This document shows positions 27,466 through 50,180 of a DNA stretch of 64,000 bases, piece after piece. The stretch spans positions 376-64,375 of the forward strand of contig CANRNR010000006.1 of NCBI GenBank assembly GCA_947632035.1. The letters are read 5' to 3'. Position 1 is the first letter of the stretch. The number at the start of each line of letters is the position of its first letter. The stretch is from an uncultured Clostridia bacterium. Its GTDB lineage: Bacteria; Bacillota; Clostridia; TANB77; CAG-508. A model generated the notes under the pieces. The model saw only the letters and a program-made list of their open reading frames with translations. It made no database searches and was not told where the DNA came from. A program made the translations under genes and the position numbers.

Positions 27466-30400
27466 CTATTTTAATATTCTTTTCTTAATAACAATTGCGC
27501 TTACTGCTACTATTGCTACTATTACTATGCCTAATCCAATGTATAGGTAGTGTGTACCAAATGGTGGTAAAATAACTACATTTTCTGCTTTACTTGCATC
27601 TGGTTCTGCTGGTTCTGCTGTTGGGTCTTGATTTCCTTGTATTGAGTATGCCATTCTTCTACCTACTGTATTTGAAATTGATACTATTTCTGCAATGTTA
27701 TCATATGATAAATCATCTGATGTGTTTTCTGAGGTTATTGTTTGTGTTAATATTAGTTTTGTATTTGCTACGCTACTATTTACATTTCCGCTTCCTACTG
27801 GAACTAAATCTTTCTTCAATGAATCTGTAGTAATAATTGTATTATATTTTCCGTTTATTTTTTCTTCTTGCAATTTTGCATTTACATATCCATTTGCACT
27901 AATATCTGATTGAGTAATTTGGTTCCAATTCCATGTTGCATTTTGATCTTTTATAAATTTCAAATTATTTGGTACATAGTCTAAAGTTAAGTCTGCTGAT
28001 GTCTTTACAATATTATCTTTATTAGCTACTTTTCCTATATAGTAGAATGATGTTTCATTGTAGTCTTCTTCACCTATATTTGTAACTGTCATGTCATATG
28101 TTATTTCTATTGTTGCTCCATGCATTATTTCTTCGTCCATTGTTACTTGGATTAATCCTTTATTACCAGTTACCTTTGTTGCTACTCTATCTAATACTGC
28201 TTGTCTAAAGTCATTGTATCTTGTGTAATCACTATATACTCTTTCTGGATTAGATGCATTTGGTCCTACTGTATCATATTCTGTATTGTTTTTCATATCA
28301 TTTATATTGTAGCTTTCTTTTGGTTGCCAGATTAGATCTTCTACACTTTGTGTTGCATCAAATAATACTGTTCTATCTGCAAGTGTTATTTTTATATTGC
28401 TTACTTTCTTGTCTAATTCTAATCCTGCTTTTGGTCTTTCTTCTAATCCGAAGTCTAAGTTTTGTATTACATAGTTTCCATTATATTCATTTCCATTAGC
28501 ATATTTCATATCGTCTGAATTGTTGCTTTCTTTATTGCTTCCTACTGAAAACTCTCTGTTATACTCTACTTCTACTCTTATTACACCTGTTTCTGCTGTC
28601 ATTTCTTCATATTTAACAGTTCCATCTGCATTCTTTTTGCCGTATGCTTGTTCTTCTGCCATAGTGTTTGTTACACTATGTGCGTATTTATTATTTACGC
28701 CTTCTCTTATGCTCCAAATGTCTTTTGCATCTGATACTCTTAATCCAAATTCATCTGCTTTAGCAATATCATAGCCATATGTAGCTGATTCATTTTGTCC
28801 GTTTAAATCTGTATATCCTACATATCCTAGTACGTCGTCACCACTAATATCTGTTCTTCCGTTTTGGTCTATTTTTGCTCCTGTAGATAAATTCATTTGA
28901 TAGCTTGTTGATTTATAGTCTTGTGCATTGTATATTTCTTTATTAAAAGCTGTTCCTCCGTATGTAAATTTTACTATATAATCTCCTGGTATATATCCTT
29001 CAATTTCATATTCTCCCAATACTCGTGTTGTAGCTGTTGCATCTCTAAATTCTCCACTTGCAAGATCATATATTTTTGCTACATTTGGATCTACTGTTAC
29101 TGTTCCATCAGGTGCTTTAGTTACTTCATGTAATTCTACTCGTATGCCTTCTACTCCTACTTCACCCTCTTCTTTTAAACCATTTCCTATAAGTGCATTT
29201 GTATCACCTGGTGAATATGTTCTCTTGTCTTCCCATACTGTACCATTTATTTTTCTTGTTAAACTGTTATCTGCATATATTCTAATTTCTTTTGCTCTAT
29301 CTGTATCGTCTTCAAAATTATGCTCATAAATTTGTTGTCCTTGTGGTGTTGATTGTATTGCTCTTAATGTAGCATCATTAAAGTTACCTGGGTTAGAATC
29401 CTTATCTATTATACCAGCATGGTCATTTGAAGATTTTGTAATTCCGTTTGGTAATACTTGTCCATTATTGTACCATGTTGAGTATCCATTTACTTCTGCA
29501 ATATTTTTCTTTGAACTATTTTCATCATTATCTAGAAGTAGGCTATAATCTGAAGCTCTTCCTAATTTAAATGTTAAGTAGATATATCCAGTTCCTCCTG
29601 TTGATAACTTGTTGTCTTTTAATCCATTGATATAAATTGTCTTATATCCTAAGTTTCTTAGTTCATCATTATATCTTGTATTTTCTGAATACATTCCAGT
29701 ATCACTTGATTGTACTGGTTTATATTTGTCATTATTTGTTGCATAACTTTCTTTTCTATAAAGTTCGTTTGCTCCATTTAAACCATTTTCTTCTATAATT
29801 TTTAAGTATTCTTTATCACTAACATTATTTATTTTTCTATCATCTTGTTCTCCTTTGTACATTACCCATGACATATTAGGCATAAATACATAATCTTCAT
29901 CATAGTAATCTACTACTTCATCTACTTGTGCTAGTAATGATGCTGTATTTCTAATTGATAATTTATATGTAACATATACATCTAATCTCTTACCTTGTGT
30001 ATTTTCTAAATCCACCTTAGTATCTGCTGGGTATAATTCTCTATTATATGTAGGTGAATAGTATGCTGCATAATCTGAAATTCTCGCACTAATTTCCCAA
30101 TATCTTTCATCATCTTCGTCATCACCATTGTATGTATATGTTTGTGTTTGTCCATTTATTGTTAATGCTGCTTTATATACATCTTTTGTAAGTGATAAGT
30201 CGTTTTGTGATCTTCTTACTAAACCTAAGTTTATATAATTTGCTCCACCATCAAGTAATGTATAATGATAAATGTTAATAGTAACTTCTACCTCTTTATA
30301 TGTTCCATCTGGTTGTAAAACTTGCTTAACATATGTAGAATGTTCTTCTGAATCTAAGTTATTAGTAAATTGGTTTAAAGTCAAATAGTTATCATATGTA

Positions 30401-33111
30401 CTAGTATCTTCACTACTTTGTGGTTTAGTATATGCTGACATTTTACAATCTTCAATAAATTGTAATTTCTTAGCAGTTTCTACATTACCATTTACTATTC
30501 TTAGATATATATTTCTTAATTCTTGATCATTAGGGAATCTATAGCTTCCTGGTGTAATTCCATCTCCCATAATAAACTGTTTAATTGCCTCAGTTACTAT
30601 ACCTTCTTGATATTGATTAGTTTCTATTCCTTGTTCATCATATAAATATCCATCTAATAGTTGTTTTGATCTATCGTAATAATATTTTCCATCTGTTCCT
30701 AAAGTATAACCCATTAAATCTAATCTACTAAAGGTTGTGTTATATGTATCTTGAAGCAATCCTAATGAATTAGTTGTTACATAGTTTTCTGGGTATGACT
30801 CAATTGTTCCAAATCTGTTATCATATGCAGTTTTTTCACTATTTTTTTCTGTTGCTTTTGAAGTTCTTTGCCATGCATCTGTATTATACAATCCGCTATT
30901 AATCATATCTTCTATATTATAATAATTAGGTTTGTTTTTGTCTATGTTTCCTTCTACATCTATATTTGTTAAATAATCAGTTGGCATATATATTTGTCCA
31001 TCATATTCGAATTTAACATAGTATTTTCTCATTGGGTCTAGCCCTCTAAATTCATATTTACCATTTTCATCTGTATATGTTGGGTTTATATATGCATACA
31101 TATTTGAAGCTGTTTTTCTACTTGTATTTATTGGCCAAGCTAATTCGTTAGTATCTGCAAAATATAGTGTTACTTTTATATTTTTAAGACTTATATCTTC
31201 AGAACCTGGAATATCAGTTGTATTACGTCCATCACGTAAGCTTTCTTTTCCTACTCCAGCATCCTCCCATACATTTCCACCTAAGTTAAATGAAAAGTCA
31301 TAAAAATCATATACCTCATAGTCATCATCATCATCGTCATCGTCATTATCATCATCTCCTGGTGGTGGAGGTGGTGGTGGTGTATCATCATCATCTTCTG
31401 GTGGTGTTGGAATTGAAGCATTTAAATCTAATTCTTGTTCATAAAGTAATCTATTTGCATCTGGTATCATTACTTCTTGTTGATCTGTTGAACTAATTGA
31501 AACATTTATTTTACATCCATAAGCTGTTTCATCAACAACTTTTGTTCCATAATGCCCTGCAACATGATCCCAGCTATATCCATCATTTGAATCTGGCTTT
31601 GTAGTTGTTGTTATTGTAGTGCCGTTTTCATCAGTTCTTTCCCAATATTCGTCTATCCAATTGTCTTTGTCTTCAACTGTTTTGGTATGCTTTGTAGTTC
31701 CATCATAGCAATCTCCAGTATGCTCGTATACTTTTTCATTAGCAGTTAGTGTAGCTGTATATTGTTTACCTTCTAATATTGCTGCTTCACCAGATGCTAA
31801 CATATATTGAAATTTTACTTTTACAGAAATAGATGTTACACATTGTTCTTCTGAAGTTTTTCCAACATTTGGGTTACTTATTGTTACGAAAAACTGTTGT
31901 CCTGATTTTGGATATACTTGTTTATTAGTATCTACTAGTTCACTTCCTGATGGAGTGAAGAATTGTAAAGAGCTTCCTCCTCCGTATCCTCCTGTTGCAC
32001 CATCTCCAAGCATAATACTTGAAATTGGAAGTTGTCCTATACAAGCTCCAAATGAGTTATATCCCATTACATACATTTCTGTAATTCCTGCAAAAGATTT
32101 TCCTCCATCAAAAGCTGTTCCATCATCAACATAGGTCATACTAAATGGTCCAAAGGTATAATTTCCTGTTGCCATATCAACTCTAGGGAAAACTCCTGAT
32201 GATGTGTTTTGTGGATTTAATCCACCATTTGCTTCTACTTTATTATGATATTCTGCATAACGAAGTGCTTCGTTTGTAAGTCCATCTGCAGCACCTCCTA
32301 CTTCAGGGTTAGGATATTCTTCTGTTCCTGTACCTACAATTGCGCTTCCATCTGCACTTTCATAACCACCTGTTGCTTCATTAAATACTTGTTTTCCTCT
32401 TAAATTCCAGATTGCATATTGTTTTTCTTCTGTCCATTGTCCTTTTGGATCAGATGATACTATATATGCCATAGCTGGACTTAATTTTATTACTTCTTTT
32501 GTAGAAAATAGTGGTGGTGTTACTATTTTTGATGGCATTGTTACTTTAGTATGCTCTACTAATTCTACTTTTTCTACTGTGTTATAATAGTCAGTCTCAC
32601 CTGTATTGGTATTATACCAAGGTGTTTGTGAGATTTCTTTCCATGTTATTTTAGCATGTCCATATTCTGGTAGTTTTGTATTTGTAGTACATTTTGATTC
32701 TTTAAACTGTGATGCTAAACCTTGTAATTCAGTTTTTGTAAAATATCCTCCACCAGATTTTCTAGTTCTTAATCCTGGTGTTACATGTCCTTGTTTTGGC
32801 TCTATACAATAAACTTCGTAACCTTCAATTAGAGGAGCTAAATCACCTGGTCCTAATTCTAAACATGGTAAATCTTTTGCACCTGCTGGAACATTAAACT
32901 TTGAATATGGGTCGCCAGATACTAATGTACCTGCACCATCTGGTACTATTTCTACGCCATATTCATCTTCATTTGGTACAATTTCTACGTCAGGATCGGT
33001 AACAGCTTTTATTCTATCAATTGTTAATTGTAATATTCCTACTATAATTAATGTTACCATTATCATTAGTATACTTACTCTAAAGATTTGTTTCATCTTT
33101 TTAGTTCGCAT
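27466..33111 (-). CDS. Giant (1881 aa) surface protein, copy A: signal-anchor, candidate thioester domain, Asp/Pro linker, SdrD-B/Cna-B-like and DUF11-like stalk, C-terminal ILPPFG + TM + KKRILK
   Basis: SD AAAGGAGAGGAGG upstream, 22 nt after the stop of 33134..38419. Motifs: EVYCIEP (Cys102) and EEKQYAIWN (Gln231); GGNVWEDAGVGKESLRDG...YTDENGKYEFRGL; NGTVWEDKRTY...GEYEIEGYIPGDYIVKFTYGG; HGATIEITYDMTVTNIGEEDY. Confidence 0.85.
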   Translation of the reverse strand: MRTKKMKQIFRVSILMIMVTLIIVGILQLTIDRIKAVTDPDVEIVPNEDEYGVEIVPDGAGTLVSGDPYSKFNVPAGAKDLPCLELGPGDLAPLIEGYEVYCIEPKQGHVTPGLRTRKSGGGYFTKTELQGLASQFKESKCTTNTKLPEYGHAKITWKEISQTPWYNTNTGETDYYNTVEKVELVEHTKVTMPSKIVTPPLFSTKEVIKLSPAMAYIVSSDPKGQWTEEKQYAIWNLRGKQVFNEATGGYESADGSAIVGTGTEEYPNPEVGGAADGLTNEALRYAEYHNKVEANGGLNPQNTSSGVFPRVDMATGNYTFGPFSMTYVDDGTAFDGGKSFAGITEMYVMGYNSFGACIGQLPISSIMLGDGATGGYGGGSSLQFFTPSGSELVDTNKQVYPKSGQQFFVTISNPNVGKTSEEQCVTSISVKVKFQYMLASGEAAILEGKQYTATLTANEKVYEHTGDCYDGTTKHTKTVEDKDNWIDEYWERTDENGTTITTTTKPDSNDGYSWDHVAGHYGTKVVDETAYGCKINVSISSTDQQEVMIPDANRLLYEQELDLNASIPTPPEDDDDTPPPPPPPGDDDNDDDDDDDDYEVYDFYDFSFNLGGNVWEDAGVGKESLRDGRNTTDIPGSEDISLKNIKVTLYFADTNELAWPINTSRKTASNMYAYINPTYTDENGKYEFRGLDPMRKYYVKFEYDGQIYMPTDYLTNIDVEGNIDKNKPNYYNIEDMINSGLYNTDAWQRTSKATEKNSEKTAYDNRFGTIESYPENYVTTNSLGLLQDTYNTTFSRLDLMGYTLGTDGKYYYDRSKQLLDGYLYDEQGIETNQYQEGIVTEAIKQFIMGDGITPGSYRFPNDQELRNIYLRIVNGNVETAKKLQFIEDCKMSAYTKPQSSEDTSTYDNYLTLNQFTNNLDSEEHSTYVKQVLQPDGTYKEVEVTINIYHYTLLDGGANYINLGLVRRSQNDLSLTKDVYKAALTINGQTQTYTYNGDDEDDERYWEISARISDYAAYYSPTYNRELYPADTKVDLENTQGKRLDVYVTYKLSIRNTASLLAQVDEVVDYYDEDYVFMPNMSWVMYKGEQDDRKINNVSDKEYLKIIEENGLNGANELYRKESYATNNDKYKPVQSSDTGMYSENTRYNDELRNLGYKTIYINGLKDNKLSTGGTGYIYLTFKLGRASDYSLLLDNDENSSKKNIAEVNGYSTWYNNGQVLPNGITKSSNDHAGIIDKDSNPGNFNDATLRAIQSTPQGQQIYEHNFEDDTDRAKEIRIYADNSLTRKINGTVWEDKRTYSPGDTNALIGNGLKEEGEVGVEGIRVELHEVTKAPDGTVTVDPNVAKIYDLASGEFRDATATTRVLGEYEIEGYIPGDYIVKFTYGGTAFNKEIYNAQDYKSTSYQMNLSTGAKIDQNGRTDISGDDVLGYVGYTDLNGQNESATYGYDIAKADEFGLRVSDAKDIWSIREGVNNKYAHSVTNTMAEEQAYGKKNADGTVKYEEMTAETGVIRVEVEYNREFSVGSNKESNNSDDMKYANGNEYNGNYVIQNLDFGLEERPKAGLELDKKVSNIKITLADRTVLFDATQSVEDLIWQPKESYNINDMKNNTEYDTVGPNASNPERVYSDYTRYNDFRQAVLDRVATKVTGNKGLIQVTMDEEIMHGATIEITYDMTVTNIGEEDYNETSFYYIGKVANKDNIVKTSADLTLDYVPNNLKFIKDQNATWNWNQITQSDISANGYVNAKLQEEKINGKYNTIITTDSLKKDLVPVGSGNVNSSVANTKLILTQTITSENTSDDLSYDNIAEIVSISNTVGRRMAYSIQGNQDPTAEPAEPDASKAENVVILPPFGTHYLYIGLGIVIVAIVAVSAIVIKKRILK
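31316..31410 (-). repeat. Low-complexity coding tract for the Asp/Pro linker (PTPPEDDDDTPPPPPPPGDDDNDDDDDDDDYEVYDFYDF)
   Basis: Runs of (tca/tcg)n and (ggt/gga)n on the plus strand. Confidence 0.8.
32419..32808 (-). other. Candidate thioester-domain core in copy A (Cys codon 32806-32808, Gln codon 32419-32421)
   Basis: YC(I)E plus ..KQYAIW.., 129 residues apart, match the [YF]C[ILV][EDQ] and (T)QxA[IV]W motif pair of TIE/TQXA thioester adhesins. Confidence 0.5.
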
Positions 33112-33133: not shown

Positions 33134-36100
33134 TTAGTTTACTTTCTTTGTTAATACTCGTTTTTTGATTTCATATATTCCAAATGCTAATACTGCTAAT
33201 ATTACTACTATTAAAATTGATCCTACTACTAATTTACCAGTTACTACTGATAACACAATATCTGCTTTTGATATATCATCTTCTTGTGATATATTATTTC
33301 CTGCTACTGAATCTAAATCTTCTCTTCCTTCTTCATTATAGCTTTCATATATTTCTGCATTATTGTTTATAATGTTTCCTATGTTTTTATCTGTTATATT
33401 AAAGCTTAATACTAATGTTACTTCTTTGCTTTCTCCAGGATTTATTATTGTATTTGCTAAGCTTGTGTTAAATACATCTTGATTGTTGCTTGCTAAATAC
33501 CAATCACTATTTACTTCTGACATAAACATTGCATCTTCTGGTAAGTAATCTATTAATTTTCTTGCATATCCTGGTATTTTTCCTTCGTTTGTTACTCTTA
33601 TTTTGTATTCTACTATTATGCTACTCTTGTTTACGTTGTTTCCTAATATTTCTACTTTTGCTAATTTTTCATTATTATATGGTGTTACTCTTGTTCCTAT
33701 TGTTGGAGTTGTTAATGTTATTTTACTTACATATTTATCTAGTCTTAAATCAAATTTTTCTGCTACATATAAACCTATATCGATATCTCTTACATTTGAA
33801 TCTGTAATCTTTACTATGTTTGTAATACCTGCAACTCTCTTTTCTCCATCAAATACAGTACTTATATCTATTACATCTGAATTTAATCCTTCATCTACAC
33901 CTTCTGCTTTATATTTAGTTAGACTGTAGCTTGATGCATCATATAAGAATAATACTAAGTATTCTCCTTGTGGAATATTTGCAAATTCGTATGTTCCATT
34001 ATTTGATGTTGTAGTTCTTTTTGGTTCGTTTGTATTTATATCGTTTACAACCATGTTGTTTACTTTATTTAATAATACAACTGGTATATTGCTTAAAAGT
34101 TTTTCTGTGTCATCACGTTTTCCATCTTTATTTTCATCTAACCATGCAGTTCCTGCTATTTTATATTTAGGTGTTGTTGGCGATGTAGTTGTTCCACCTT
34201 GATTTGGGTTTGATGATGGTTCTTGGTGTAATTCTTCATTATATTCTATTGTGTTTGTTACTGTGTTTGTTTGTACTTCTTCAAAATATTGAGCTGAAAC
34301 TTTTACTGTATTTTTAACTTGCTTGTCTTCTTGATTTAATACTTTTGCTCTTACAGTAATAGTTATGCTTGCACTTGCTCCAACAGGTAGTTGTGAAATA
34401 ACAGTTCTAGCTGTATTATTACTTATATTAGTAATATGTTGTACACCTGAATCAGTTGTATAAGATAATTCTGTAAATAAAAGTTCATCAGGTATAACAT
34501 CTTCTATCTTAATATTTTCTGCAATTATGTCTCCTATATTTTTGATGTCAAATTTATATGTAATTGTTTCTCCTTCTTTTACATATCTTGGTGTTGTTGT
34601 AAGTTCAGATATCTCTAGTTTTACTTTTGCTGATTCATACTCTAAAGTATTTGAATAATGTTCTTCTCCTTCAGCACTTTTTGCAATTGCTCTCATAGAA
34701 CTTACTCCGTCAAATTCTTTTCCTTCTAATGTTATACGTATTACTTGTTCTGTAGTAGTTAGAGTGTCTATTTTTACTTGTAATGTATGTGTATTCTTAT
34801 CATAACTAATAGTATTTCTACTTGTTACTCCATTTTCTTGTTCTAATGTTGCTTCTTTATAATTAGTTCCTGGTAATAATGGAATATTTACTGTTACATC
34901 TTTTAATTCACTTTCGCTTCCTATATAACTTATATTAACTCTATATTTTGTTTCTTGTCCTTTTAATAGTGGTGTACTATCTTCAATGCTTCCTATTAAT
35001 TGTAATTTTATTTCTCCATCTTTTATTGTATTTTTATATTCATTTGAAGGAATACCATTTTGCATTTGGTCTCCGATGATAGTAACTTTGCTTGTAAATT
35101 CAGTTTCTGGTAGTTTACCATCTTCTAGTTTTTTAACTGTTCCATCTTCGTCATCTATATATATGTTTCCATCACTATCTTTATAAGTTTTTGGCTTTGG
35201 AATTGAATTATCTATTTTAATATAATAGCTTTTTGTTATAGTTTCTCCTGGTTTTATTGTTCCTATATCGATTGTTTTTTCATCAGCTACCTGCTCAGAA
35301 AATCCCATATTATATGTATAAACTGAAAATTTTGCATATTCTGGTTTTGGAATATTTAATTTTGCATTTGTAACTGCCATGTCTCCTGTATTTGTTACAG
35401 TTACATTCATTTTTACTGTTTGTCCTTCTCTTATTACATCTGCTGTAGATTCTAGTTTTACATCTAATTCTGGTCCTTCACCAGTTGTTAAGGCTATTAC
35501 TGGTGACTCTTTTGTTTCTTCTAAGCTTCCTACTTCTGATGTGTTTGTATAATATATTTTATACATCTCATAGCTACTATTATTATAACTTAAGTTTGCT
35601 GGTACTTCTATATCATAGCTAAATGCTATTACTTCTTGTTCATTCATTTCGTAGCCTTCGTTTGCTACTATCATGTATGATTTTGCTTCTTTGCTGAAGT
35701 TTTCTGTCCATCCATTTTCTGCATCTTCTAAGTTTGAATTTGCATCTACTTTATTTGAATAATATACTTTATAATTTTCTAAACCTGTTACTTTTATTTC
35801 TGAATTTATTACTGCATCAAATGTTGAACCTAATTCTTCTTCTGAATCTATTTTTCTATTATCCTTTGATGGTAATCTTCCTAATATTTTTAAGTCTGTT
35901 ATTTTGTTTCCATAATTATTTACTACTGTTCCTGTTACTGTTGCTACTTTTTTATCACTATATGTTTCTATTTGTACTTCTTCTGTTTTATCTGATATTG
36001 ACATTACTTCTTTACTATTTTGAGCATAATTTGCTATTGCATTGGCTGATACTACTCCAGTTGGTGCTACAAAATTTACTTTTGTTTCTACTTGTCCTTG

Positions 36101-41700: not shown

Positions 41701-44543
41701 GAACCTTTTCTATAAACCCTATCATTTATACTGAAGGTTTCTGACATAGGATATGCATCATATGTATCCTTTATTGCTGATGTTATTGATTTTGATGATG
41801 CTTTTGTATATGCTTTAATTTTACAATCTTCTATGAATTGTAATTTTTGCGCCGTTTCTTTAGGATTATTACTATTTTTAGCTATGTTATAATAAATTCG
41901 TTGCATGTCTTGATCAGTTGGGAATTTTCTATTGTTATTAATGTAATTTCTTACTGCTTCTGAAATCTTACCATTAATACAAATTCCTTGTTCATTATAT
42001 CTATCAATTAAGTCTCCTAAATCGTCTTGTGTAAAGCTTGCATTATAATCTCCTGATAGCCATCCATTATTATTGGTAAATAATGAATTTATTTTATTTC
42101 TTATTTTATAGTTTTCAGGATATGAACCAATTGATGCAAAGTTTTCATCGAATTCATTTCTAGAGCCTTTTACTGTTGTTACAGTTTCTTCAGTTGCTTT
42201 TGAAGTAATTTTCCAAAATGCTGCTCTTATTTCTTCTTCAAGATTTTCATCAGTAATCATTTCCTTTGCACTATTGTAAGTCTTATCTCCTACTTTTAAA
42301 TAATCTGTAGCAGTAAATATTTGACCATCATATTCAAAAGTCATATAATATCTTTTCATTGGGTCTATTCCCATAAAGCTATAATGACCATAATCATCTG
42401 TATATGTTGGATTTATATGTGAATATATATCTCCTTCTCCTAAGAAGTTATATATTGGTGCTAATTTTCCATCTAATGTATATAATGTTACTTTAACATT
42501 TTTTATGCCTCTTTCTACACTTGCATCTCTTAAACCATCTCGTACTGATTCCTTTCCACCAGACTGGTCTTCCCATACATATCCTCCTAGATTCATATAT
42601 AATTGAGGTGGATCATACGGTGTTGGTGTCGGCGTTGGCGGTGGTGTTGTTGGCGTTGATGGCGTCGTTGGTGTTGACGGTGTCGACGGTGTCGATGGTG
42701 TCGATGGTGTTGATGGTGTTGATGGTGTCGACGGTGTCGATGGTGTTGATGGTGTTGATGGTGTTGATGGTGTTGATGGTGTTGATGGTCTTGATGGTGT
42801 CGATGGTGTTGATGGTGTTGATGGTGTTGATGGTGTCGATGGTGTTGATGGTGTTGATGGTGTCGATGGTGTTGATGGTGTTGATGGTCTTGATGGTGTC
42901 GATGGTATCGATGGTGTTGATGGTGTTGATGGTGTTGATGGTCTTGATGGTGTTGATGGTGTTGATGGTCTTGATGGTGTTGTTGTTGGAGTTGGTGTTG
43001 GTGTTGGCGTTGGCGTGCCTCCACCTGTTGAGAATATTTCTATAGTTTCTGTGTATTCAACTATACATACATCTGGTATTGATATTGGTTGTAATGTTTC
43101 ACTACCTTTCTTACTTATTTTTGTTGTTACAACACATGTTTGACCCTTTTCATCTTTGCAATATTTTGTTACGGGTACTGTTTTCGTATCATGATCATGA
43201 TCCATTTTTCCATCATTATTTTCATCATGAGTACAATCTACCTCTACTTCTTGTGACTCTTGATGTGAATGACTAGTTTCACCATGTTTAGTAGTTACTG
43301 TTTTCTCATATTGATTTCCTTCATAGTTTGTTTTTACTCCATAAGCTAAAGTGTATTTAAATGTTACCAATATAGATATACTGGATATATAATTACTTCC
43401 ATCATCTTTAACATTAGTATTAGGGTTATTAAAATCTACATAAAATGCTTCTCCTGAAGCAGGATATTGCTGCGCATTAGGATCTGAACCTGATTCATCT
43501 GGATTAAAGAAATGAGTTTCACTTCCACCTCCATATTGAAGACTTCCACCTAGTTTTCTTTCAGAGCCATCAGCCGCATGACCTATAACTTCTACACTAG
43601 CCATACCTCCATGTGAGCCACTACCACCGAAGTTACTTCCTGAATCATTATATCCTATACTAACAGGTCCTGCTCTATATGATCCATTTCCATCTGTCCC
43701 ACCATTTAAATCTCCCTGTAAAAAAGATATTCCTCCTGTAAAGTCTTGTATGTTTAGTCCTTCGTTTTTGATTACAGAATCATGAAAACTTGCATATTCT
43801 TTAGCTGCTGTGCTATAAATATTGTCTGTTCCATGAGTTGTCTCTATATTTTCTCCATGATTTATTTCCCAAAAAGCCTTTTGCTTTTCAGCAGTCCATT
43901 CAGTACCACCATCAGTATATATGTATGCTTCTGCAGGTGAGATGGTTTCTGTACTACTTATTGTATAATAAGCTGGTGAATAGCTAGTTTTTGTGCCATC
44001 TTTTTGGTCTTCACATTTATGTCCATCATGAATTGTACATTCAGAACTCTCTGTCATAGACTTTTTTCCATCTCCCATCTTGTTTTGCAACTCCGTGTAT
44101 TCTTCTACAGAAAATCCTCCTCTATATGAATTGAAACGCATATTAGGGCCATTGCAATATACATCTGCTCCTTCTACTAATGGTGCCATATTATCTTCTC
44201 CTAGTTCATAACTAAGAATTCCCTCTTGCTCAACTCCGTTTTCATCTTTCCATGTTGATGTTTTTAATGTTAATCCATTCTCCTTGTCATAATTTTCTGG
44301 TATTGTATTATATTTATACGTATTTGGATCTTCTCCACTAGTTCTTTTTCCACTTAGTCCTGAGGGCTCCATGTTGTAACCGCCACCTGAATCAGATGTA
44401 CTACTTATTGTTGCTATACCTGAATTTTTATCAGAAGTAGCTACAGAAAAAATTACTAATTGAAATAGACCTATCATTATAAACGTAGTAATTATTGTCT
44501 GTATTATCGTCCCTAGAATTTTACTTTCTTTTTTATATGGCAT
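38709..44543 (-). CDS. Giant (1944 aa) surface protein, copy B: signal-anchor, divergent candidate thioester domain, (S/T)P-repeat linker, SdrD-B/Cna-B-like and DUF11-like stalk, C-terminal ILPPFG + TM + KKTVLK
   Basis: SD AAGGAGGGAG, 16 nt after the stop of 44560..49782. Motifs DVYCNGP (Cys130) and AEKQKAFWE (Gln221). The C-terminal ~900 aa are collinear with 27466..33111 and in blocks near-identical to it. Confidence 0.85.
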   Translation of the reverse strand: MPYKKESKILGTIIQTIITTFIMIGLFQLVIFSVATSDKNSGIATISSTSDSGGGYNMEPSGLSGKRTSGEDPNTYKYNTIPENYDKENGLTLKTSTWKDENGVEQEGILSYELGEDNMAPLVEGADVYCNGPNMRFNSYRGGFSVEEYTELQNKMGDGKKSMTESSECTIHDGHKCEDQKDGTKTSYSPAYYTISSTETISPAEAYIYTDGGTEWTAEKQKAFWEINHGENIETTHGTDNIYSTAAKEYASFHDSVIKNEGLNIQDFTGGISFLQGDLNGGTDGNGSYRAGPVSIGYNDSGSNFGGSGSHGGMASVEVIGHAADGSERKLGGSLQYGGGSETHFFNPDESGSDPNAQQYPASGEAFYVDFNNPNTNVKDDGSNYISSISILVTFKYTLAYGVKTNYEGNQYEKTVTTKHGETSHSHQESQEVEVDCTHDENNDGKMDHDHDTKTVPVTKYCKDEKGQTCVVTTKISKKGSETLQPISIPDVCIVEYTETIEIFSTGGGTPTPTPTPTPTTTPSRPSTPSTPSRPSTPSTPSTPSIPSTPSRPSTPSTPSTPSTPSTPSTPSTPSTPSTPSTPSRPSTPSTPSTPSTPSTPSTPSTPSTPSTPSTPSTPSTPSTPTTPSTPTTPPPTPTPTPYDPPQLYMNLGGYVWEDQSGGKESVRDGLRDASVERGIKNVKVTLYTLDGKLAPIYNFLGEGDIYSHINPTYTDDYGHYSFMGIDPMKRYYMTFEYDGQIFTATDYLKVGDKTYNSAKEMITDENLEEEIRAAFWKITSKATEETVTTVKGSRNEFDENFASIGSYPENYKIRNKINSLFTNNNGWLSGDYNASFTQDDLGDLIDRYNEQGICINGKISEAVRNYINNNRKFPTDQDMQRIYYNIAKNSNNPKETAQKLQFIEDCKIKAYTKASSKSITSAIKDTYDAYPMSETFSINDRVYRKGSGGGSFTDQDGNSYGIELGSDKNSSFWDILDDLWTDIDDLLGESAYETIYPNNAYVNLGLWRRPLSDISLTKDVFKAALTINGQSQVYDYDDRGDTEDKDYPYWDIGARISDYGNYYDSMYERSVYPSDANSNLGNNDNANKRLDIYVTYKIAVRNSSQSMQAQIDEIVDYYDADYESLVPEMSWVMYRGQSEDNVENRKMINVSDEEYLKIIDGKNISYANEGYSADNPKYKPIYLDETVASGGKYTPEEGKYSQNTRWDLTIDGETYKATHINGLKDRKLQTGENGYVFLTFKLGRNQNNNKLLLDNQITSKQNIAEVNGYTTWYNDGTKLPNGIEKSSNNHAGIIDRDSTSGNFDNSKINNDKWENNMEDDTDRARGIKIYEDSNLVRKISGVAWEDKRTYSPEETNALIGNGLREDGEVGINGITVNLYEVINRKTNDTPAKRYENGDWTSEPIKTHNETIDGKNIDGYYSFEGYIPGDYIVRFTYGGEDCKDYNGQDYKSTSYQRYLHIKGAGEYKLDEIDQNATTDISSNDINPIHYLGYIYPELDTQNESAGYGYSIDRADNFVDSSGKKLNVSDAKDLLGAIQGYPFYGQGRARFYEDKYTKEIKNSMATSSEYLYPTIVAETGVIRAEVEYNREFTEGNNSGEYHIRDLDFGLEERPKAGLELDKKVSNVKLTLSNQTVLFDATQSVEDLIWQPKQSYNINNMKNETTYDNVGPTASNPERVYSDYTRYNDFRQAVLNRVDTMVNSNKGLIQLTMDEEIMHGATIEITYDMTVTNIGEEDYKDNYFYYLGRITNKHTIVGGGIDDTDTIVKTTANEVIDYVENNLQYREANNNTDWKWRTITQEEAHQYVNNDVYNAIDKKYNTILMTTALNKPLIPLGSSENENDSKVGTKLILIQTITSQNTADDLSYKNMAEIVSISNDVGRRMAFSIQGDQDPKAAPAEPDASRAEDVTILPPFGEHYVYIGLAIFIITILAVSVVTIKKTVLK
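42620..43020 (-). repeat. About 400-nt coding tandem repeat (9- and 15-nt units) encoding the TP/(S/T)PS(T/R)PS linker
   Basis: Plus strand reads (ggtgttgat/ggtgtcgat/ggtcttgat)n. The protein reads TPTPTPTPTPTTTPSRPSTPSTPSRPSTPSTPSTPSIPS...TPTTPPPTPTPTP. This is the local G+C maximum of the window. Confidence 0.9.
43881..44156 (-). other. Candidate thioester-domain core in copy B (Cys codon 44154-44156, Gln codon 43881-43883)
   Basis: It aligns with the copy-A motifs (APL(I/V)EG..VYC; EKQ.A.W), but the residues after the Cys (NG) depart from the usual [ILV][EDQ]. Confidence 0.4.
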
Positions 44544-44559
44544 TTCTTTTTCTCCCTCC

Positions 44560-47500
44560 TTAGTTTAATTTCTTTGTTAATACTCTTTTTTTAATTTCGT
44601 ACATTCCGAATGCAACTATTACTAGCATAACGATTATTAGTATTGATCCTATTACTAACTTTCCAGTTACTACTGATAGTATGATATCTGCTTTTGACAT
44701 ATCATCTTCTTCTGACATTTTGTTTCCTGGAACTGAGTCTATGTCTTGAGTTCCTTGCTCATTATAGCTTTCATATATTTCTGCATTATTATTTACTATA
44801 TTTCCTATATTTTTATCTGTTATGTTAAAGCTTAGTACTAAGGTTACTTCTTTACTTTCTCCTGGATTTATTATTTTATTTGCTAAACTTGTATTGTATA
44901 CATCTTGGTTATTATTTGATAAATACCAATCACTATTTAGTTCTGACATAAAGATGGCATCTTCTGGTAAATAATCAACTAATTTTTTTGCATAGCCTGC
45001 AACTTTTCCTTGGTTTGTTACTTTAATTTTGTATTCTACAATGATGTTACTTTTGTTTACATTTCTTGCTAATACTTCCACTTTTGCTAAACTTTCTTCG
45101 TTATAATTTGTTACTCTTGTACCAATTGTAGGTGTTGTTAATGTTATTTTGCTTATATACTTGTCCAATCTTAAATCAAATCTTTCTGCTTCATATATAC
45201 CTATATCTATATCTCTTGCATTTGAATTTGTTATTTTTATAACATCAGAAACTCCTGCTAATTTTCTCTCTCCTTCATATAATATGTTTATATCTATTGC
45301 ATCTGAATTTAATTCTTCTTCTACTCCCTCTGCTTGATATGTAGTTAATTTATAGCTTGCAGAATCATATAAGAATACTACCAAATATTCGCCTGGCATA
45401 ATATTTACAAATTCATATGTTCCATCATTTTTAGTTGTAGTCTTTTTCTGTAATTTTGTATCTACATCTGTTACAATAGTATTGTTTGATTTATCTAATA
45501 GCATAACTTCAATATTTTTTAATGTTTGCTCATTACTATCTCTTTTTCCATCTTTATTTTCATCTAGCCATGCTGTTCCTACAATTTTGTATCTGTCTTT
45601 GCTAGAACTATCTTTATCTTTATCATCTTTGTGTATTTCTTCATTGTATTCAATAACATTTGTTACAGTATTTGTTTCAATGCTATCAAAATTAGTTCCA
45701 GAAATTTGCATTTTATTTTTTATTGTTTTATCGTTTTTGTCTTCCAAAGCTTTTGCTCTTGCAATAATTGTAATTTCTGCTGTTTGTCCACTATATAATG
45801 TTTTTATAGTCATTTTTGCTACATTATTAGGTGCTTTTGAGATTTTGTTTTGTTTATTATTTATTGAGTAGTAACCTTGAACAAAAACCAAATCATCTGG
45901 TAATGTATCTGTTATTTCAATATTTGTTATATATGAAGAGCTTTCGTTTGTAATATTAAGTTTATATGTAATGTTTTCTCTTTCTTTTACGTATTTTGGC
46001 AAACCTGTTAAATCTGATACTGTTAATTTTACTTTTTCTGAATTATATGTAAGCTTATTAGAATAGTTTTCTTCTCCATTACCAATTCTTGCTGTAGCCA
46101 TCATAGAACTTTTTCCGTCAAAATCTTTTCCTGTTAATTTTAGTATAATAAGTTGTTCTTCTTCATTTAATTTATCTATTTTTACTTGCAAAGTATGATT
46201 TTTCTTATCATAGCTAATTCCTTCTGTCGTGGTTTCAGATTTCTCTGAGCTTTTTCTTATAGTTGCTTCTTTATAGGTAGTATTTTCTAATAATGGTATT
46301 GTTACTGTCACATCATTTACTTCTCCAATACCCATTGTATTTATATATAATTTAAATTCAAGTTCAGTACCATTTAATATATCTATATCTTCGGAATTTC
46401 TTCCTATTAATTTTAAATTTAATTTTCCTTCTTTTATGATGTTACTATATTCATTAGAAGGTATTTCATCTTCTATTCCATCTACTTTAACTGTTACTTT
46501 AGTCTTGAATTTTATCTCTGGTGTATCTCCTTCTAACGGTTGCATTTCACCATTTTCGTCTCTAAAGAATTTGTTTCCATCTACATCTGTAAAAATAGAT
46601 AATTTTAATATTGATTCATCTATTTGAATATAATATGTTGCATTTACTGTTTCTCCTGGTTTTATTGTTCCTACATCAATTTCCTTAGTTTCTCCTTCAA
46701 AAAGAGTTATATCATAGTTAGTTTTATATTCCATTAAGTTTGCATATTTTGGTTTTGGAACATTTACTTTTGCATTTGTAACTTCTTTATCTCCTGTATT
46801 AGTTATAGCTACTTGCATTTTTACTATTTGTCCTTCTCTTATTACATCTGCTGTTGATGATAACTCTACTTTTAAGTCTGGTCCTTCCCCAGTTGTAATT
46901 TTTATTATTGGTGATTCTTTTTCTTCATTCATTCTTGCTATTTCTGATACATTTGTATAATAAACTTTATACAATTCATAACTGCTATTGTTGTAAGTTA
47001 AACTTTCTGGTATTTCTATATCGTAGCTAAATTCTATTATTTTTTCTTTTTCCATTTCATAGCTTTCATCTGCAACTATCATGTATGATTTTGCTTGATT
47101 TGTAAAACTTTCTGTCCATTCATTTTCTAAATCTTCTAAGCTTGAATTTGCATCTACTTTACTTGAATAATATACTTTATAATTCTCTATTCCTTTTACA
47201 TTTACTTCTGTTTTTATTGTTGCATCAAATGTTGCTCCTAATTCTTCATTAGAATCTATTTTTTTATTATCTTTCGATGGTAATCTTCCTAATATTTTTA
47301 TGTCTGTTATTTTGTTTCCATAATTATTTATTACTGTTCCTGTTACTGTTGCTATTTTCTTTTCACTATATGTTTTTACTTCTGCTACTGATGTTTTTTC
47401 TGCTGATATAGACATTATTTTTTTGTTATTTCCTGCATAATTTGTTATTGTATTTGCAGTTACTACTCCTGTTGGTGCAATAAAGTTTATTATTGCTTCT

Positions 47501-49782
47501 TCTTTTCCTTCTTTATTTTTTACTACTTCATTTTCGTTTACATAAGTCATCTCTACTTTGTTTTCATTTGTTGGAGTTAATGGGTCCAAGTCTATATCTG
47601 TATTTAATAATATTATTGTTCCTTTGTAGTCTGCTCCTATTGTATATTCTGTTTGTTCTCCTTCTAATTCTACTACTATTACTGATTCATCATTTATTTT
47701 TTCTATATTGGCATTTTTTATCTTTAATCCATTGTTCATTACAATGTCTGTTGATTTTAGATTTATATTGCTTATATATGATGGTAATTTTATTCTTAAA
47801 GTAGGATTTTTGTATAATGCATTATTTAAATCTGATGTATCTAGTACTACCCTTATTTGCACATTTTCATTTGTTACTACTGTTGATAGACTTTCTGGTG
47901 CTATGCTTATCTCTGCTTTATTTGTTAATTCTTCTAATTGTATTTCATTTTTCAAAGCTTGCTCGTTTGTATTTGTTCTTGCTATAGCTTCTGTTTCTAT
48001 TTTTGTTATTTCCTTCATTTGCTCTTTTGTGTATTCTGTATTTTCTTTAAATGCTTTTGTTATTTCTAATTTCATAGTTCCTTCTGATATTAGTTCTGAT
48101 GTTTTTATTTTTAATTCTGAAGCTTTTTCTTCTACTATATCTAAAACGTAATCTTTTGTTTGATTATCTAAATAACTTGTTTTTACATTTTCTGTTTCTT
48201 CTTCTAATTCGTCTTGCTCATTATTTATTTGCTCATTATTTACTTGCTGGCTATTTATTTGCTCATTTTTTATTACTGCTATAACTTCTCCATCCTTTGT
48301 GCTTATTTCTATACTTCCTTCTTCACCTAGCATTTTTTTGAAATTTTCTTCTGATATTCTTATTTGTTTTACATATGTATTGTTTCCACTTAAGTATTTT
48401 TCATTTTGATATTCGATTTTGTCATTTTTAATTTCATATTCTATATTTTGATTTAATTTTGTATCATATATGTCTGTTTTATATATTACATCATATTCTG
48501 TTTCTTGTTTATTTTCTTTCTTACTATAATTTGCATACATGTATGCTTTACTTAGTTTTTCATTAGTTGTTGCATCAAATTCTGTTATGTTTCCTTTTTC
48601 TTCTTCTATACTATAGTTAATTACTCCTTCTATTCCTATTGTAGCTTCTTCTGGGTTATAGGTTTCTAATTCTACTTCTACTTTTATTTCTCCTGTTATC
48701 GCTTGCTCATTTGTTTTTCCTTGCTCTATTTCTTCTTCTGTTAATTTTCCTGCTTTTGCTTCTTTAATTTGCTCTTGTATATAATCGTATATTTCTTTTC
48801 CTTCATATATAAATGTTATTATGTATTCGTCTTTTCCTTCTCCCCAAGTTATTTTTCCTTCTGCAACATTATTACTTACTTCTATTACTATTTTTCCTTC
48901 TTCTTTATTATAAGTATAATTTTCTTTTCCAAATATATTTTCACTTGAGTTTCCTTTCGTTGCTTTTAATGAATTTGAAATAACACTTATCCTTTCTGGT
49001 TTTTTACTTTCAAATTCTTCCGTTGGTTCTCCATCTAGCATTTTCTCTGATAATTGATTTTGTGTTTCTTCATCTGTATTTGGAAGTTTTATTTCTGGTA
49101 CTTCTATTTGTAATTTTGTTTTTGCTATTGGTAATTTATTTTCTTTTATTCCTGTTGTTATTTTACTTTGTACCATAACTCCATATTCGTTATCTTTATG
49201 ATATGGTATATATTTAGATACTTCTCCTTCTATTTCTATTTCTGGATTAGCTTGCCATCTTATTCTGTTTGTTATTGTTTTTTCTACTTTTTTCTCATCG
49301 CCATTTCCATTTATATAATTTCCGTTAAAGTATATTCTTGTATCTTTTGAAAAATAATCATTATCTATTTGAGCATCCTTTTTAAAAGTGATTGGTAAGC
49401 TTATTAAAACTTCCTCGCCACTTTTTATTTGTTCTAGATAAATTTTCCCATTCTCTATTTTTTGTATATAATTAGATTCCACTTGGCTACTATCTACTTC
49501 AAAGTTTTGATTTCCTAATTCTACTATTCCATTTCTTAGATAGCCACTTTCTTTTACATTTATTTTAATGTATAAATTGCCTCCTGTTGATGTATCAAGT
49601 GTTTTCTCATGATCTCCACCCTCTAAGTAACTATTAAATTCTACATTAGAGCTATTTGTTTTGCTATTTTGTGTAGGTAATGTAGTTGATAATGCTATTA
49701 CTTGTGAACCCACATTTAACAAGTTGCCACTAAGTAATATTACTAGCATAATTATTGATATAATTTTTTTCCTAAGTCTCAT
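44560..49782 (-). CDS. Giant (1740 aa) surface scaffold protein, copy B (paralogue of 33134..38419)
   Basis: The signal peptide and first ~60 aa are almost identical to copy A (MRLRKKIISIIMLVILLSGNLLNVGSQVIALSTTLPTQNSKTN). DUF11 signature GQIVKMQVAITNTGDKEVTNAKVNVP. YKIVGTAWLDENKDGKRDSNE. C-terminus ...SVVTGKLVIGSILIIVMLVIVAFGMYEIKKRVLTKKLN. Confidence 0.85.
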   Translation of the reverse strand: MRLRKKIISIIMLVILLSGNLLNVGSQVIALSTTLPTQNSKTNSSNVEFNSYLEGGDHEKTLDTSTGGNLYIKINVKESGYLRNGIVELGNQNFEVDSSQVESNYIQKIENGKIYLEQIKSGEEVLISLPITFKKDAQIDNDYFSKDTRIYFNGNYINGNGDEKKVEKTITNRIRWQANPEIEIEGEVSKYIPYHKDNEYGVMVQSKITTGIKENKLPIAKTKLQIEVPEIKLPNTDEETQNQLSEKMLDGEPTEEFESKKPERISVISNSLKATKGNSSENIFGKENYTYNKEEGKIVIEVSNNVAEGKITWGEGKDEYIITFIYEGKEIYDYIQEQIKEAKAGKLTEEEIEQGKTNEQAITGEIKVEVELETYNPEEATIGIEGVINYSIEEEKGNITEFDATTNEKLSKAYMYANYSKKENKQETEYDVIYKTDIYDTKLNQNIEYEIKNDKIEYQNEKYLSGNNTYVKQIRISEENFKKMLGEEGSIEISTKDGEVIAVIKNEQINSQQVNNEQINNEQDELEEETENVKTSYLDNQTKDYVLDIVEEKASELKIKTSELISEGTMKLEITKAFKENTEYTKEQMKEITKIETEAIARTNTNEQALKNEIQLEELTNKAEISIAPESLSTVVTNENVQIRVVLDTSDLNNALYKNPTLRIKLPSYISNINLKSTDIVMNNGLKIKNANIEKINDESVIVVELEGEQTEYTIGADYKGTIILLNTDIDLDPLTPTNENKVEMTYVNENEVVKNKEGKEEAIINFIAPTGVVTANTITNYAGNNKKIMSISAEKTSVAEVKTYSEKKIATVTGTVINNYGNKITDIKILGRLPSKDNKKIDSNEELGATFDATIKTEVNVKGIENYKVYYSSKVDANSSLEDLENEWTESFTNQAKSYMIVADESYEMEKEKIIEFSYDIEIPESLTYNNSSYELYKVYYTNVSEIARMNEEKESPIIKITTGEGPDLKVELSSTADVIREGQIVKMQVAITNTGDKEVTNAKVNVPKPKYANLMEYKTNYDITLFEGETKEIDVGTIKPGETVNATYYIQIDESILKLSIFTDVDGNKFFRDENGEMQPLEGDTPEIKFKTKVTVKVDGIEDEIPSNEYSNIIKEGKLNLKLIGRNSEDIDILNGTELEFKLYINTMGIGEVNDVTVTIPLLENTTYKEATIRKSSEKSETTTEGISYDKKNHTLQVKIDKLNEEEQLIILKLTGKDFDGKSSMMATARIGNGEENYSNKLTYNSEKVKLTVSDLTGLPKYVKERENITYKLNITNESSSYITNIEITDTLPDDLVFVQGYYSINNKQNKISKAPNNVAKMTIKTLYSGQTAEITIIARAKALEDKNDKTIKNKMQISGTNFDSIETNTVTNVIEYNEEIHKDDKDKDSSSKDRYKIVGTAWLDENKDGKRDSNEQTLKNIEVMLLDKSNNTIVTDVDTKLQKKTTTKNDGTYEFVNIMPGEYLVVFLYDSASYKLTTYQAEGVEEELNSDAIDINILYEGERKLAGVSDVIKITNSNARDIDIGIYEAERFDLRLDKYISKITLTTPTIGTRVTNYNEESLAKVEVLARNVNKSNIIVEYKIKVTNQGKVAGYAKKLVDYLPEDAIFMSELNSDWYLSNNNQDVYNTSLANKIINPGESKEVTLVLSFNITDKNIGNIVNNNAEIYESYNEQGTQDIDSVPGNKMSEEDDMSKADIILSVVTGKLVIGSILIIVMLVIVAFGMYEIKKRVLTKKLN
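48215..48274 (-). repeat. Four 15-nt in-frame tandem units (Asn/Gln/Glu-rich insert specific to copy B)
   Basis: ttgctcattatttat-like units encode NEQINSQQVNNEQINNEQ. No equivalent is present in 33134..38419. Confidence 0.6.
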
Positions 49783-49828
49783 AGTAACCTCCTAAATCTT
49801 CTTATGAACATAATTGTTCTATAATATC

Positions 49829-49856
49829 AATTTACCACATTTATTTATTTTTTCAA
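49829..49856 (-). promoter_or_regulatory. Promoter of the copy-B operon: -35 TTGAAA (49851-49856), 16-nt spacer, extended -10 TGGTAAATT (49829-49837)
   Basis: Collinear with the copy-A promoter and 5'UTR (catagtaacctcctaaat...ttctataatatcaatt...). TCCGTAAA box at 49897-49904. Confidence 0.5.
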
Positions 49857-50180
49857 TGGTTATTTTTTCTAATTAAATATAGTAATATGATTTGTGTTTA
49901 CGGATAGTGTTTTTTGTTTAGAAATATTAAATTTTTGTAACAATTTAGCAATTTTTGTCATAAAACATTATTTGTTTTTTAATTTGTATACATAATGTTA
50001 ATATGGTAATCTTTATTTTATAAATTATTTTATCTTTTGGTAACATTTTTTCAAGAAGTGAATATATATGAATATAGATAAATTGAATAATAATAAGTAT
50101 AAAAAATATTCAAATATAGATAAATGAAGTTTTATATTATTGTGTAAATTTTGATTAATATTGAAAGGAGCAAATTTTTT

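Follow-up and report, generated by a model that had tools for sequence, protein, structure and literature searches.

Two old paralogous operons for predicted giant surface fibers, one component with a candidate divergent thioester head, in uncultured gut Clostridia

The stretch of DNA considered here, 64,000 nucleotides of contig CANRNR010000006.1 from an uncultured Clostridia bacterium (GenBank assembly GCA_947632035.1; hereafter 'the window'), carries on its minus strand four very long open reading frames (ORFs) that form two collinear units, A and B, arranged head to tail and together occupying about a third of its 64 kb. Each unit comprises a first gene ('gene 1'; A1 and B1) and a second ('gene 2'; A2 and B2), separated by 22 nucleotides in unit A and by 16 in unit B, with a strong ribosome-binding site of the GGAGG type in both; the pair is termed the 'cassette' below. 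We read the locus as a whole, with a probability of about 0.62, as two old paralogous bicistronic operons for anchored surface fibers, in which the gene 2 product carries a probable divergent thioester head.

The initial annotation of this DNA had proposed a tandem duplication of a two-gene operon, promoter included, and the comparison of the two units bears this out: the ORF coordinates are exact, and blastn of unit A against unit B returns a single collinear chain of matches, at 69-78% DNA identity, which runs from the 3' ends through both genes and into the upstream regions (where 37722-38585 matches 49088-49946 at 76.6%). At the protein level (BLASTP), A1 shares 55% of its residues with B1 across the full length (59% when only aligned columns are counted); for A2 against B2 the figure is 49% in the C-terminal ~1300 amino acids (aa) and ~30-38% in the first 600. 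The upstream regions, said to align base for base over long stretches, do share long identical runs that take in the -35 box, the extended -10 element, the 5' untranslated region (5'UTR) or leader, and the ribosome-binding site; a one-base deletion lies in the -10 box of unit B. Promoter-like sites are present where they had been predicted, that of unit B being the weaker, and a hairpin with a T-run, folding far better than shuffled sequence, closes each unit. Near-identity had also been claimed for the signal peptides and the C-terminal anchors, which is correct for the gene 1 signal peptides and for all four C-terminal tails, whereas the gene 2 N-termini are only moderately similar.

Such an arrangement is not an assembly artefact, a concern raised when the locus was first described, because the copies differ by more than 20% in DNA and the same two-unit arrangement is found in an independently assembled metagenome-assembled genome (MAG), GCA_947630185.1, whose A-type proteins are 95-96% identical to those of the window and whose B-type gene 1 product is 75% identical. 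A recent duplication is likewise ruled out by the low DNA identity between the copies. Judged by this sequence divergence, the duplication is an old paralogy. The coordinates of the genes and of their principal features are collected in Table 1.

Table 1. Genes and sequence features of the two cassette units (coordinates refer to the window; residues to the encoded protein).
Feature	Position	Strand	Details
A2 (gene 2, unit A)	27466-33111	minus	1881 aa; thioester-domain-like N-terminal module, acidic/proline (Asp/Pro) linker, SdrD_B-like stalk, anchor module with LPPFG, transmembrane (TM) helix and KKR tail
A1 (gene 1, unit A)	33134-38419	minus	1761 aa; same architecture as B1; no Cys
B2 (gene 2, unit B)	38709-44543	minus	1944 aa; thioester-domain-like N-terminal module, (PST)n linker, SdrD_B-type stalk, unassigned middle domains, anchor module with LPPFG, TM helix and KK tail
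B1 (gene 1, unit B)	44560-49782	minus	1740 aa; signal peptide, CLIPPER/DUF11 and SdrD_B domains, C-terminal DUF11-like module, SVVTG, TM helix and KKR tail; no Cys
Promoter-like site, unit A	38467-38494	minus	TTGAAA-16-TGnTATAAT (extended -10 TG); 11 of 12 positions match
Promoter-like site, unit B	49829-49856	minus	TTGAAA-16-TAAATT, TG before -10; weaker match; sequence evidence
Putative terminator after B2	38668-38701	minus	Hairpin and T-run; dG -16.2 kcal/mol, z -5.9
Putative terminator after A2	27305-27361	minus	Hairpin and T-run; dG -21.8 kcal/mol, z -3.3
SVVTG of B1	44662-44676	minus	Residues 1703-1707; 33 residues from C-terminus
SVVTG of A1	33236-33250	minus	Residues 1724-1728
LPPFG of B2	38799-38813	minus	Residues 1911-1915; 29 residues from C-terminus
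LPPFG of A2	27556-27570	minus	Residues 1848-1852
N-terminal module of B2	43029-44543	minus	Residues 1-505; Cys130 in VYCNGP, Gln221 in EKQKAFW
N-terminal module of A2	31432-33111	minus	Residues 1-560; Cys102 in VYCIEP, Gln231 in KQYAIW
Tandem repeat, 9 nt x 40	42642-43000	minus	Encodes the (Pro-Ser-Thr)n linker of B2; local GC 36% against ~27%

The cassette extends well beyond this one organism. More than 120 full-length homologues of gene 1 were found, ~1,550-1,750 aa long and down to 28% identity, nearly all of them unnamed proteins of Clostridia MAGs. A scan at species level (one genome per species) gave 254 relatives, from which 75 loci were retrieved with 10-kb flanks and their ORFs mapped against the window proteins. 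All 75 loci belong to uncultured gut Clostridia, among them Clostridium sp. CAG:508, CAG:273, CAG:245, CAG:780 and CAG:354 and many MAGs from rabbits, humans and ruminants. In every one of these loci a gene 2 homologue comes after the gene 1 homologue, directly so for 75 of the 84 gene 1 copies with a complete 3' end (the remainder being cases of ORF fragmentation or locus ends), and at least two tandem pairs are present in 23 of the 75. The pairing of gene 1 with gene 2, which had been suspected from the window, is a fixed, clade-wide feature; unlinked homologues of the two genes, which would have spoken against it, were not encountered in any of the 75 loci.

The chromosomal position is conserved as well. 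The window is a low-GC chromosome segment (~27%) of a sporulating Clostridia-type organism, in which the two units are flanked on one side by mreB, mreC, mreD, a penicillin-binding protein (PBP) gene and minC, and on the other by spoIIE, a WG-repeat protein gene, acpS and tatD. The commonest order among the relatives, PBP-[g1-g2]-spoIIE-WG, is that of the window and recurs in a relative at 35% identity; a PBP gene lies upstream in 49 of the 75 loci and spoIIE downstream in 33, the flanks not always being visible. CAG-245 and family CAG-508 are part of the GTDB order TANB77, an uncultured gut clade with reduced genomes (PMC11680825), and one complete cassette-bearing MAG measures 1.70 Mb. The operon is, then, a trait conserved throughout a group of uncultured gut Clostridia with small genomes, of the TANB77 type, to which, judging by these relatives, the organism of the window would also belong.

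Gene 1 encodes a protein with a typical signal peptide that had been described as a DUF11/SdrD-B-type scaffold, and both domains indeed score above their Pfam thresholds in both copies. DUF11 (PF01345, threshold 24.6 bits) matches A1 at 56.7 bits and B1 at 71 bits, the related model TIGR01451 scores 45.5 and 36.7 bits respectively, and A1 contains a further DUF11 domain at residues ~985-1070 (30.8 bits) and the C-terminal DUF11-like module (23.1 bits). SdrD_B (PF17210, threshold 29.7 bits) is found in A1 (45.3 bits), B1 (49.3 bits) and also B2 (32.8 bits), and falls below threshold in A2 (23.9 bits). DUF11 has been renamed CLIPPER, and its crystal structure has shown that fibrillar adhesins use it as a stalk domain, which is CnaA-like and has an isopeptide bond (PMC12617251). 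The ~960 N-terminal residues of A1, the sole copy so scanned, gave no Pfam match even when searched piecewise. On its domain content, the gene 1 product is a predicted CLIPPER/SdrD_B stalk protein with an unassigned head of ~960 residues.

Gene 2 follows a different plan, with a hydrophobic segment (a signal or an anchor) at the N-terminus, a head of 400-560 residues, a low-complexity linker, SdrD_B-like domains, several hundred unassigned residues and a C-terminal anchor module, the last being weakly homologous to that of gene 1 (E = 8e-4). The head module is rare: an exhaustive HMMER search of 1.84 billion proteins yielded 132 representatives, nearly all of which form the N-terminal part of a protein of comparable size or of a fragment. 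Most of the cysteines of each protein fall within it, 7 of 8 in A2 (the first ~533 residues) and 7 of 10 in B2 (the first ~493). Near its end the A2 module contains an invariant pair, Cys533 and Gln543-544, within GCKINVSISSTDQQEVM. The linker of B2 appears to vary in length, for in strains with an identical B1 the B2 protein has 1911 rather than 1944 aa (33 residues fewer), and two short-read assemblies break within B2 at residue ~590, which is the position of the Pro-Ser-Thr repeat; this suggests both repeat-length polymorphism and breakage of short-read assemblies at the linker.

Divergence is concentrated in particular parts of both proteins. Between A2 and B2 the head and linker have diverged fastest (17-41% identity) and the anchor module least (63-78%), and the same head-to-anchor gradient is seen against the distant homologues P0003 and P0013; the close orthologue P0002 is fairly uniform at ~76-89%, with 55% in the linker region. 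Gene 1 is most variable around its central CLIPPER domains, to the point that B1 and its orthologue in GCA_947630185.1 (P0030) are 90-97% identical over the first ~600 residues and 46-51% identical at ~1050-1350, the CLIPPER region. Such a mosaic, as seen in these sequences, suggests that lineages have exchanged parts of the cassette by recombination or gene conversion. The overall pattern is that expected of exposed, diversifying surface proteins, and the duplication most likely serves to broaden or vary binding specificity, because the copies keep their anchor and stalk but diverge most in their heads.

The C-termini of these proteins had been described as TM anchors rather than LPXTG signals, a distinction that does not survive closer inspection, since the tails are sorting-signal-like and a class B sortase adjoins gene 2 in three species. 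A TM helix followed by a tail of Lys or Arg residues terminates all four window proteins, 78 of 79 listed tails of gene 2 and almost every gene 1 tail, and the pentapeptide that precedes it lies 29-33 residues from the C-terminus, within the range of 17-45 for sorting signals. In gene 1 this motif is xxxTG, followed by the TM helix and KKR, and its TG (T1706/G1707 of B1) is invariant in 18 diverse homologues. In gene 2 it is [IVL][LTV]PP[F/T/Y]G, followed by a helix of ~20 residues and KK(R); the 79 tails listed comprise 52 with PPFG, 10 with PPTG and five with PPYG, two loci (L067 and L077) display a canonical ILPPTG, and more distant relatives of 2,600-2,900 aa end in TPPTG. Class B sortase genes, located by a TLxTC regular-expression scan over all 75 loci, lie directly downstream of gene 2 in L062 (18858-19670), L065 (~10202-10987) and L069 (~18839-19666); the linked sortase scores 178.9 bits against TIGR03064 (cut-off 153.75) and 41.6 bits against Pfam Sortase. 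In those three loci gene 2 is shorter (~1,250 aa) and ends in VPPFG, and in the sister species L068, L071, L072, L074 and L078 there is no sortase at that position. The class B sortase SrtB of Clostridioides difficile recognizes (S/P)PXTG and cleaves between T and G (PMC4155245), and the xPPTG variants of the gene 2 family fit this pattern.

Taken at the level of sequence, the tails look like derivatives of LPXTG with the full architecture of a sorting signal, and their processing by a sortase is somewhat favored; alternatively, the motif would be a vestige and anchoring would fall to the helix itself. Several observations weigh against processing. The 64-kb window contains no sortase gene, and only three of the 75 loci have one beside the cassette; the commonest gene 2 motif has Phe in the place of the Thr shared by LPXTG, (S/P)PXTG and NPQTN. 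We know of no description of Phe or Tyr at the scissile position of a sortase substrate, and the literature searched held nothing relevant on tails of the LPPFG/PPFG, VPPTG or LPPTG types. When the isolated tails were compared with the NCBIfam sorting-domain models, the matches (LPXTG_anchor, Rumino_NPXTG and CoaP_CTERM) were all below threshold.

The head of gene 2 had been put forward as a candidate thioester 'warhead', and it is here that the interpretation is most delicate. In thioester domains (TEDs) the bond-forming Cys lies in the motif [YFL]CΦζ, a TQxxΦW motif is located on helix α2, and the bond-forming Gln falls in a weak ΦQζΦΦ motif (PMC6194298). Most of the 80 gene 2 homologues examined carry a motif of the [YF]C[IV][EQ]P type, which is invariant in alignments A5 and A6; 74-130 residues after its Cys comes the family consensus (E/D)KQxA(I/L)W, usually with Lys in place of Thr and predicted to be helical in model 2; and towards the C-terminal end of the module an invariant Gln (Q543/544 of A2, in DQQEVMI; Q370 of the P0013 construct) falls on strand two of a long hairpin that is predicted there. 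A further invariant Gln, a second candidate for the bond-forming residue, lies in the sandwich (Q398 of A2). The order of the three elements, Cys, (K/T)QxxΦW helix and later Gln, is that of TEDs, and they are among the very few invariant positions of the module. A profile built from 29 modules and searched against 177,635 sequences of the PDB has as its top match the TED of SaTIE, the TIE (thioester-isopeptide-ester domain) adhesin of Staphylococcus aureus (6FX6; E = 0.16), the alignment falling on FCIEP and TQMLIW, and in scans of single modules the Pfam TED family (PF08341) matches two of the 29 (best E = 0.022) and is the sole family matched by more than one member. When hhalign was run against four class II TEDs, recovered for reference from enterococcal and Vagococcus plasmids, P-values of 0.003-0.03 were obtained for the Cys strand only (reversed controls, 0.3-0.7). 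An AlphaFold model of the compact homologue P0013 (pLDDT 75, pTM 0.70) shows, in order, a Cys strand, a QxxΦ(W/Y) helix, another helix, a beta-sandwich and a long two-stranded hairpin with the invariant Gln, which parallels the class II TED topology of a head, an inserted sandwich and an extended P/Q hairpin (topology from PMC6194298).

Against these likenesses must be set a series of results that count in the opposite direction. No significant match of the full proteins to a thioester domain was found in Pfam or NCBIfam; a PDB sequence search with the full proteins gave nothing useful, and a larger head-family profile finds nothing in the PDB. The hhalign probability is below 10% and covers only ~18 columns. 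In the AlphaFold model of the A2 head (residues 36-560; pLDDT 55) the Cys lobe is unmodelled and the Foldseek matches are noise; pLDDT is below 50 in the Cys-bearing lobe of both models, and Foldseek of both against the PDB gave no match to solved thioester domains at E <= 0.001. The Foldseek rows for pore-forming toxins and factor XIII obtained with the P0013 model are non-significant and reflect its long hairpin and sandwich. Finally, the thioester reading offers no account of the other invariant Cys, which lies 10-12 residues ahead of the invariant Gln and could instead be part of a disulfide or a metal site. We consider that the gene 2 head is probably, if by no great measure, a highly diverged thioester-type domain, not an established member of that family; the earlier proposal is supported by the Cys and helix motifs and a candidate Gln, in the order of TEDs, and lacks a significant profile or structural match.

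In the part of the head that holds these Cys and Gln residues (A2 residues ~460-545, window ~31477-31732; P0013 residues ~320-410), AlphaFold predicts a two-stranded beta-hairpin of ~45 residues, the tip of which is rich in His and Cys in many homologues (HxHxxxHxCHH...CxxC) and could form a metal-binding knuckle.

If the preferred reading of the locus is followed through, each unit would give a bicistronic message that starts at a separate promoter of the sigma-70 type and stops at a separate hairpin, and both products would be exported by the Sec pathway as beta-rich fibers of ~1,700-1,950 residues. A tail of one common design (short motif, membrane helix and basic residues) would then fix both to the cell surface, and the enzyme acting on it would most likely be a clostridial class B sortase whose gene lies in another part of the genome. 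The proteins would project as long fibers of Ig domains, of the SdrD_B/CnaB type together with CLIPPER-like domains: that of gene 2 presenting, beyond a flexible low-complexity linker, a clade-specific head that is probably a divergent, class II-like covalent binding domain of the thioester type, and that of gene 1 bearing, on its CLIPPER/SdrD_B stalk, another head that is ~960 residues long and unassigned. The sequences themselves show the anatomy, duplication, linkage and synteny of the cassette together with its motifs and Pfam domains; display at the surface, processing by a sortase, thioester chemistry, cooperation between gene 1 and gene 2 and a target for them are what we infer from the locus, the grounds for cooperation being just two, the invariable linkage and the shared anchor module. 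A more ambitious version, in which the cassette is a two-component surface-fiber system that defines TANB77 and combines a new structural class of thioester head that has diverged beyond the reach of existing profiles, a new recognition motif, LPP(F/Y)G, for a class B sortase and an obligatory partner fiber acting together with the head protein, is offered tentatively and is, as a conjunction of all these parts, rather unlikely.

Among the alternatives, the one closest to the preferred reading would retain the two-fiber surface system and dispense with the thioester, the Cys belonging to a disulfide or metal site, binding being non-covalent, and the resemblance to TED motifs being convergent or coincidental. 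The lack of any significant profile or structural match is what such an account would predict, as is a second invariant Cys so close to the invariant Gln, in a stretch that is His/Cys-rich in many homologues, and the small and isolated nature of the module family is also in its favor. However, the three signature elements not only occur in the right order but are the most conserved positions of the module, the TED of SaTIE ranks above every other PDB sequence and is aligned on both motifs, and Pfam TED is the only weak match to recur; moreover, the corresponding hairpin region of A2 has few His or Cys residues, which makes a conserved metal site doubtful. We regard this account as a serious possibility, though a rather unlikely one.

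More distant from the fiber reading is the view that the cassette encodes no adhesin but a structural component of the envelope (a coat, a sheath or a surface layer associated with sporulation or division), which would explain its universality in the clade and its fixed place between the mre/min cell-shape genes and spoIIE. The cassette is indeed present in all 75 loci, usually between PBP and spoIIE where the flanks are visible; gene 1 is constant in length and can be aligned end to end at identities as low as 28%, in contrast to adhesins that vary in repeat number; and reduced genomes (the complete MAG of 1.70 Mb; PMC11680825) spend 11-22 kb on it. Yet the domain content (CLIPPER, SdrD_B, sorting-like tails and a low-complexity linker) is that of fibrillar adhesins, the heads change quickly and form mosaics among close relatives, as would be expected of exposed surfaces involved in binding or antigenicity, copy number differs between species, the promoter is sigma-70-like (sporulation-sigma promoters were not scanned for), and a neighborhood is by itself weak evidence of function, so that an envelope role seems unlikely. 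A sortase-polymerized pilus with gene 2 as its thioester tip adhesin and gene 1 as its shaft, on the model of the Cpa/Spy0128 pili of Streptococcus pyogenes, draws on the sorting-signal-like tails and Ig-like, isopeptide-type domains of both proteins and on the known pilus logic of a thioester tip adhesin with a partner protein (PMC6194298). It is nonetheless very improbable, and is rejected here, on the size of the proteins (1,740-1,944 aa, five to ten times longer than pilins) and on the absence of a class C sortase from the window and from the flanks of the 75 loci, where the sole linked sortase is the class B enzyme; no repeat-unit shaft architecture was seen, and no pilin-motif lysine region was identified, no test having been aimed at one.

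Comparison with known systems places the cassette near several of them. The closest relatives in design of gene 2 are the TIE proteins with class II TEDs (BaTIE, SaTIE, EfmTIE86 and TIEpLS20), which also have an N-terminal head with the [YFL]CΦζ Cys, a helix of the TQxxΦW type and a later Gln, followed by a beta-sandwich and hairpin (predicted in the case of gene 2), a long Ig stalk of the CnaB/SdrD_B type and a C-terminal anchoring region; TIEpLS20 is, in addition, a precedent for a sortase-independent thioester adhesin. In contrast to these, the gene 2 head matches neither Pfam TED nor the solved TEDs significantly in sequence or structure, the distance from the Cys to the candidate Gln is ~330-440 residues instead of the 171-204 of solved class II TEDs, the protein has an extra invariant Cys, an LPPFG tail and three to four times the length, and it is always paired with a second giant gene. 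Gene 1 resembles the CLIPPER (DUF11, PF01345) fibrillar adhesins in having two or three CLIPPER domains above or near threshold between its signal peptide and its sorting tail, but differs from them in the small number of CLIPPER copies, which do not form long tandem arrays, in its fixed length and in the ~960 N-terminal residues that have no Pfam match. The SdrD/MSCRAMM staphylococcal B-repeat proteins share with both genes their SdrD_B (CnaB-like) spacer or stalk domains, whereas the cassette proteins lack an A-domain (DEv-IgG) ligand-binding region and SD repeats and have other heads and anchors.

With the SrtB substrates of C. difficile the cassette shares a pentapeptide 29-33 residues from the C-terminus, a hydrophobic helix and at least two basic residues, and the gene 2 family shares with them the xPxTG-type variants (TPPTG and LPPTG) and, in three species, an adjacent class B sortase. 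It departs from them in that F or Y replaces the scissile-site Thr in most gene 2 proteins and in that the gene 1 motif has no Pro (xVxTG), in which it is like NVQTG of CbpA, a motif left uncleaved by SrtB in vitro. Finally, a pilus-like cluster has been described from the same uncultured order (Kim et al. 2024, PMC11680825) and is likewise a surface-structure locus conserved across TANB77; it consists, however, of 10-14 small genes (pilin-like proteins of 143-236 aa and assembly machinery) and is unrelated to the cassette in sequence and architecture. The cassette is not mentioned in that genomic study, which would have missed it because of its 80% similarity criterion. The gene pair was not found as a described system in the literature searched, in agreement with the initial annotation, which had not recognized it as a known type of pilus or adhesin operon. 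What sets it apart from the TIE, CLIPPER and SrtB-substrate systems is the combination of an obligatory two-gene unit, very large and length-conserved proteins, a head unrecognized by profiles, an LPP(F/Y)G tail and a syntenic chromosomal site that defines the clade and at which tandem copies have arisen repeatedly.

The cassette, which takes up 11-22 kb of genomes of ~1.7 Mb, is found in every related locus examined and surpasses by a wide margin any other surface structure predicted in the window, is an obvious candidate for the organ by which TANB77 bacteria attach to their host or to other microbes and for a dominant surface antigen. The order is a prevalent, uncultured, reduced-genome component of the gut for which a link with cancer immunotherapy response has been described (PMC11680825). 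Were the three-part system described above to be real, it would serve for the attachment to host mucus or to partner microbes on which these bacteria depend, with tandem, head-diversified copies tuning the targets, and a head that represented a new class of thioester domain might find use in tools for covalent protein capture. A tractable question is whether class B sortases accept Phe or Tyr where characterized motifs carry Thr.

Some further features of the window deserve mention in their own right. The minC gene (51315-51926), beside mreBCD and the PBP gene, is not followed by a minD or minE ORF, and the place expected for them is occupied by the cassette and small ORFs. Three such ORFs (92, 152 and 107 aa; 50151-51194, plus strand) occupy the interval from minC to unit B and are read in the direction opposite to the cassette; these are Asn/Ser-rich, of low complexity and without a Pfam match, and small unannotated genes are found at the equivalent position and orientation (3688-4621) in a relative at 35% identity (L001). 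A third region of giant surface proteins, at 448-8756 on the minus strand, consists of ORFs at 3369-8756, 2429-3238 and 448-2445. No sorting-signal-like tail was seen in it, and a match to Colicin_E5 is weak and below threshold. The ORF at 3369-8756 encodes 1795 aa with four SpaA (prealbumin-like) domains, and those at 2429-3238 and 448-2445, which lie in other frames, encode repeated DGGY(I/L)(I/V)GG motifs of beta-propeller-like character and another SpaA domain, so that the region may represent either one gene of ~2,700 aa broken by frameshifts or three genes.

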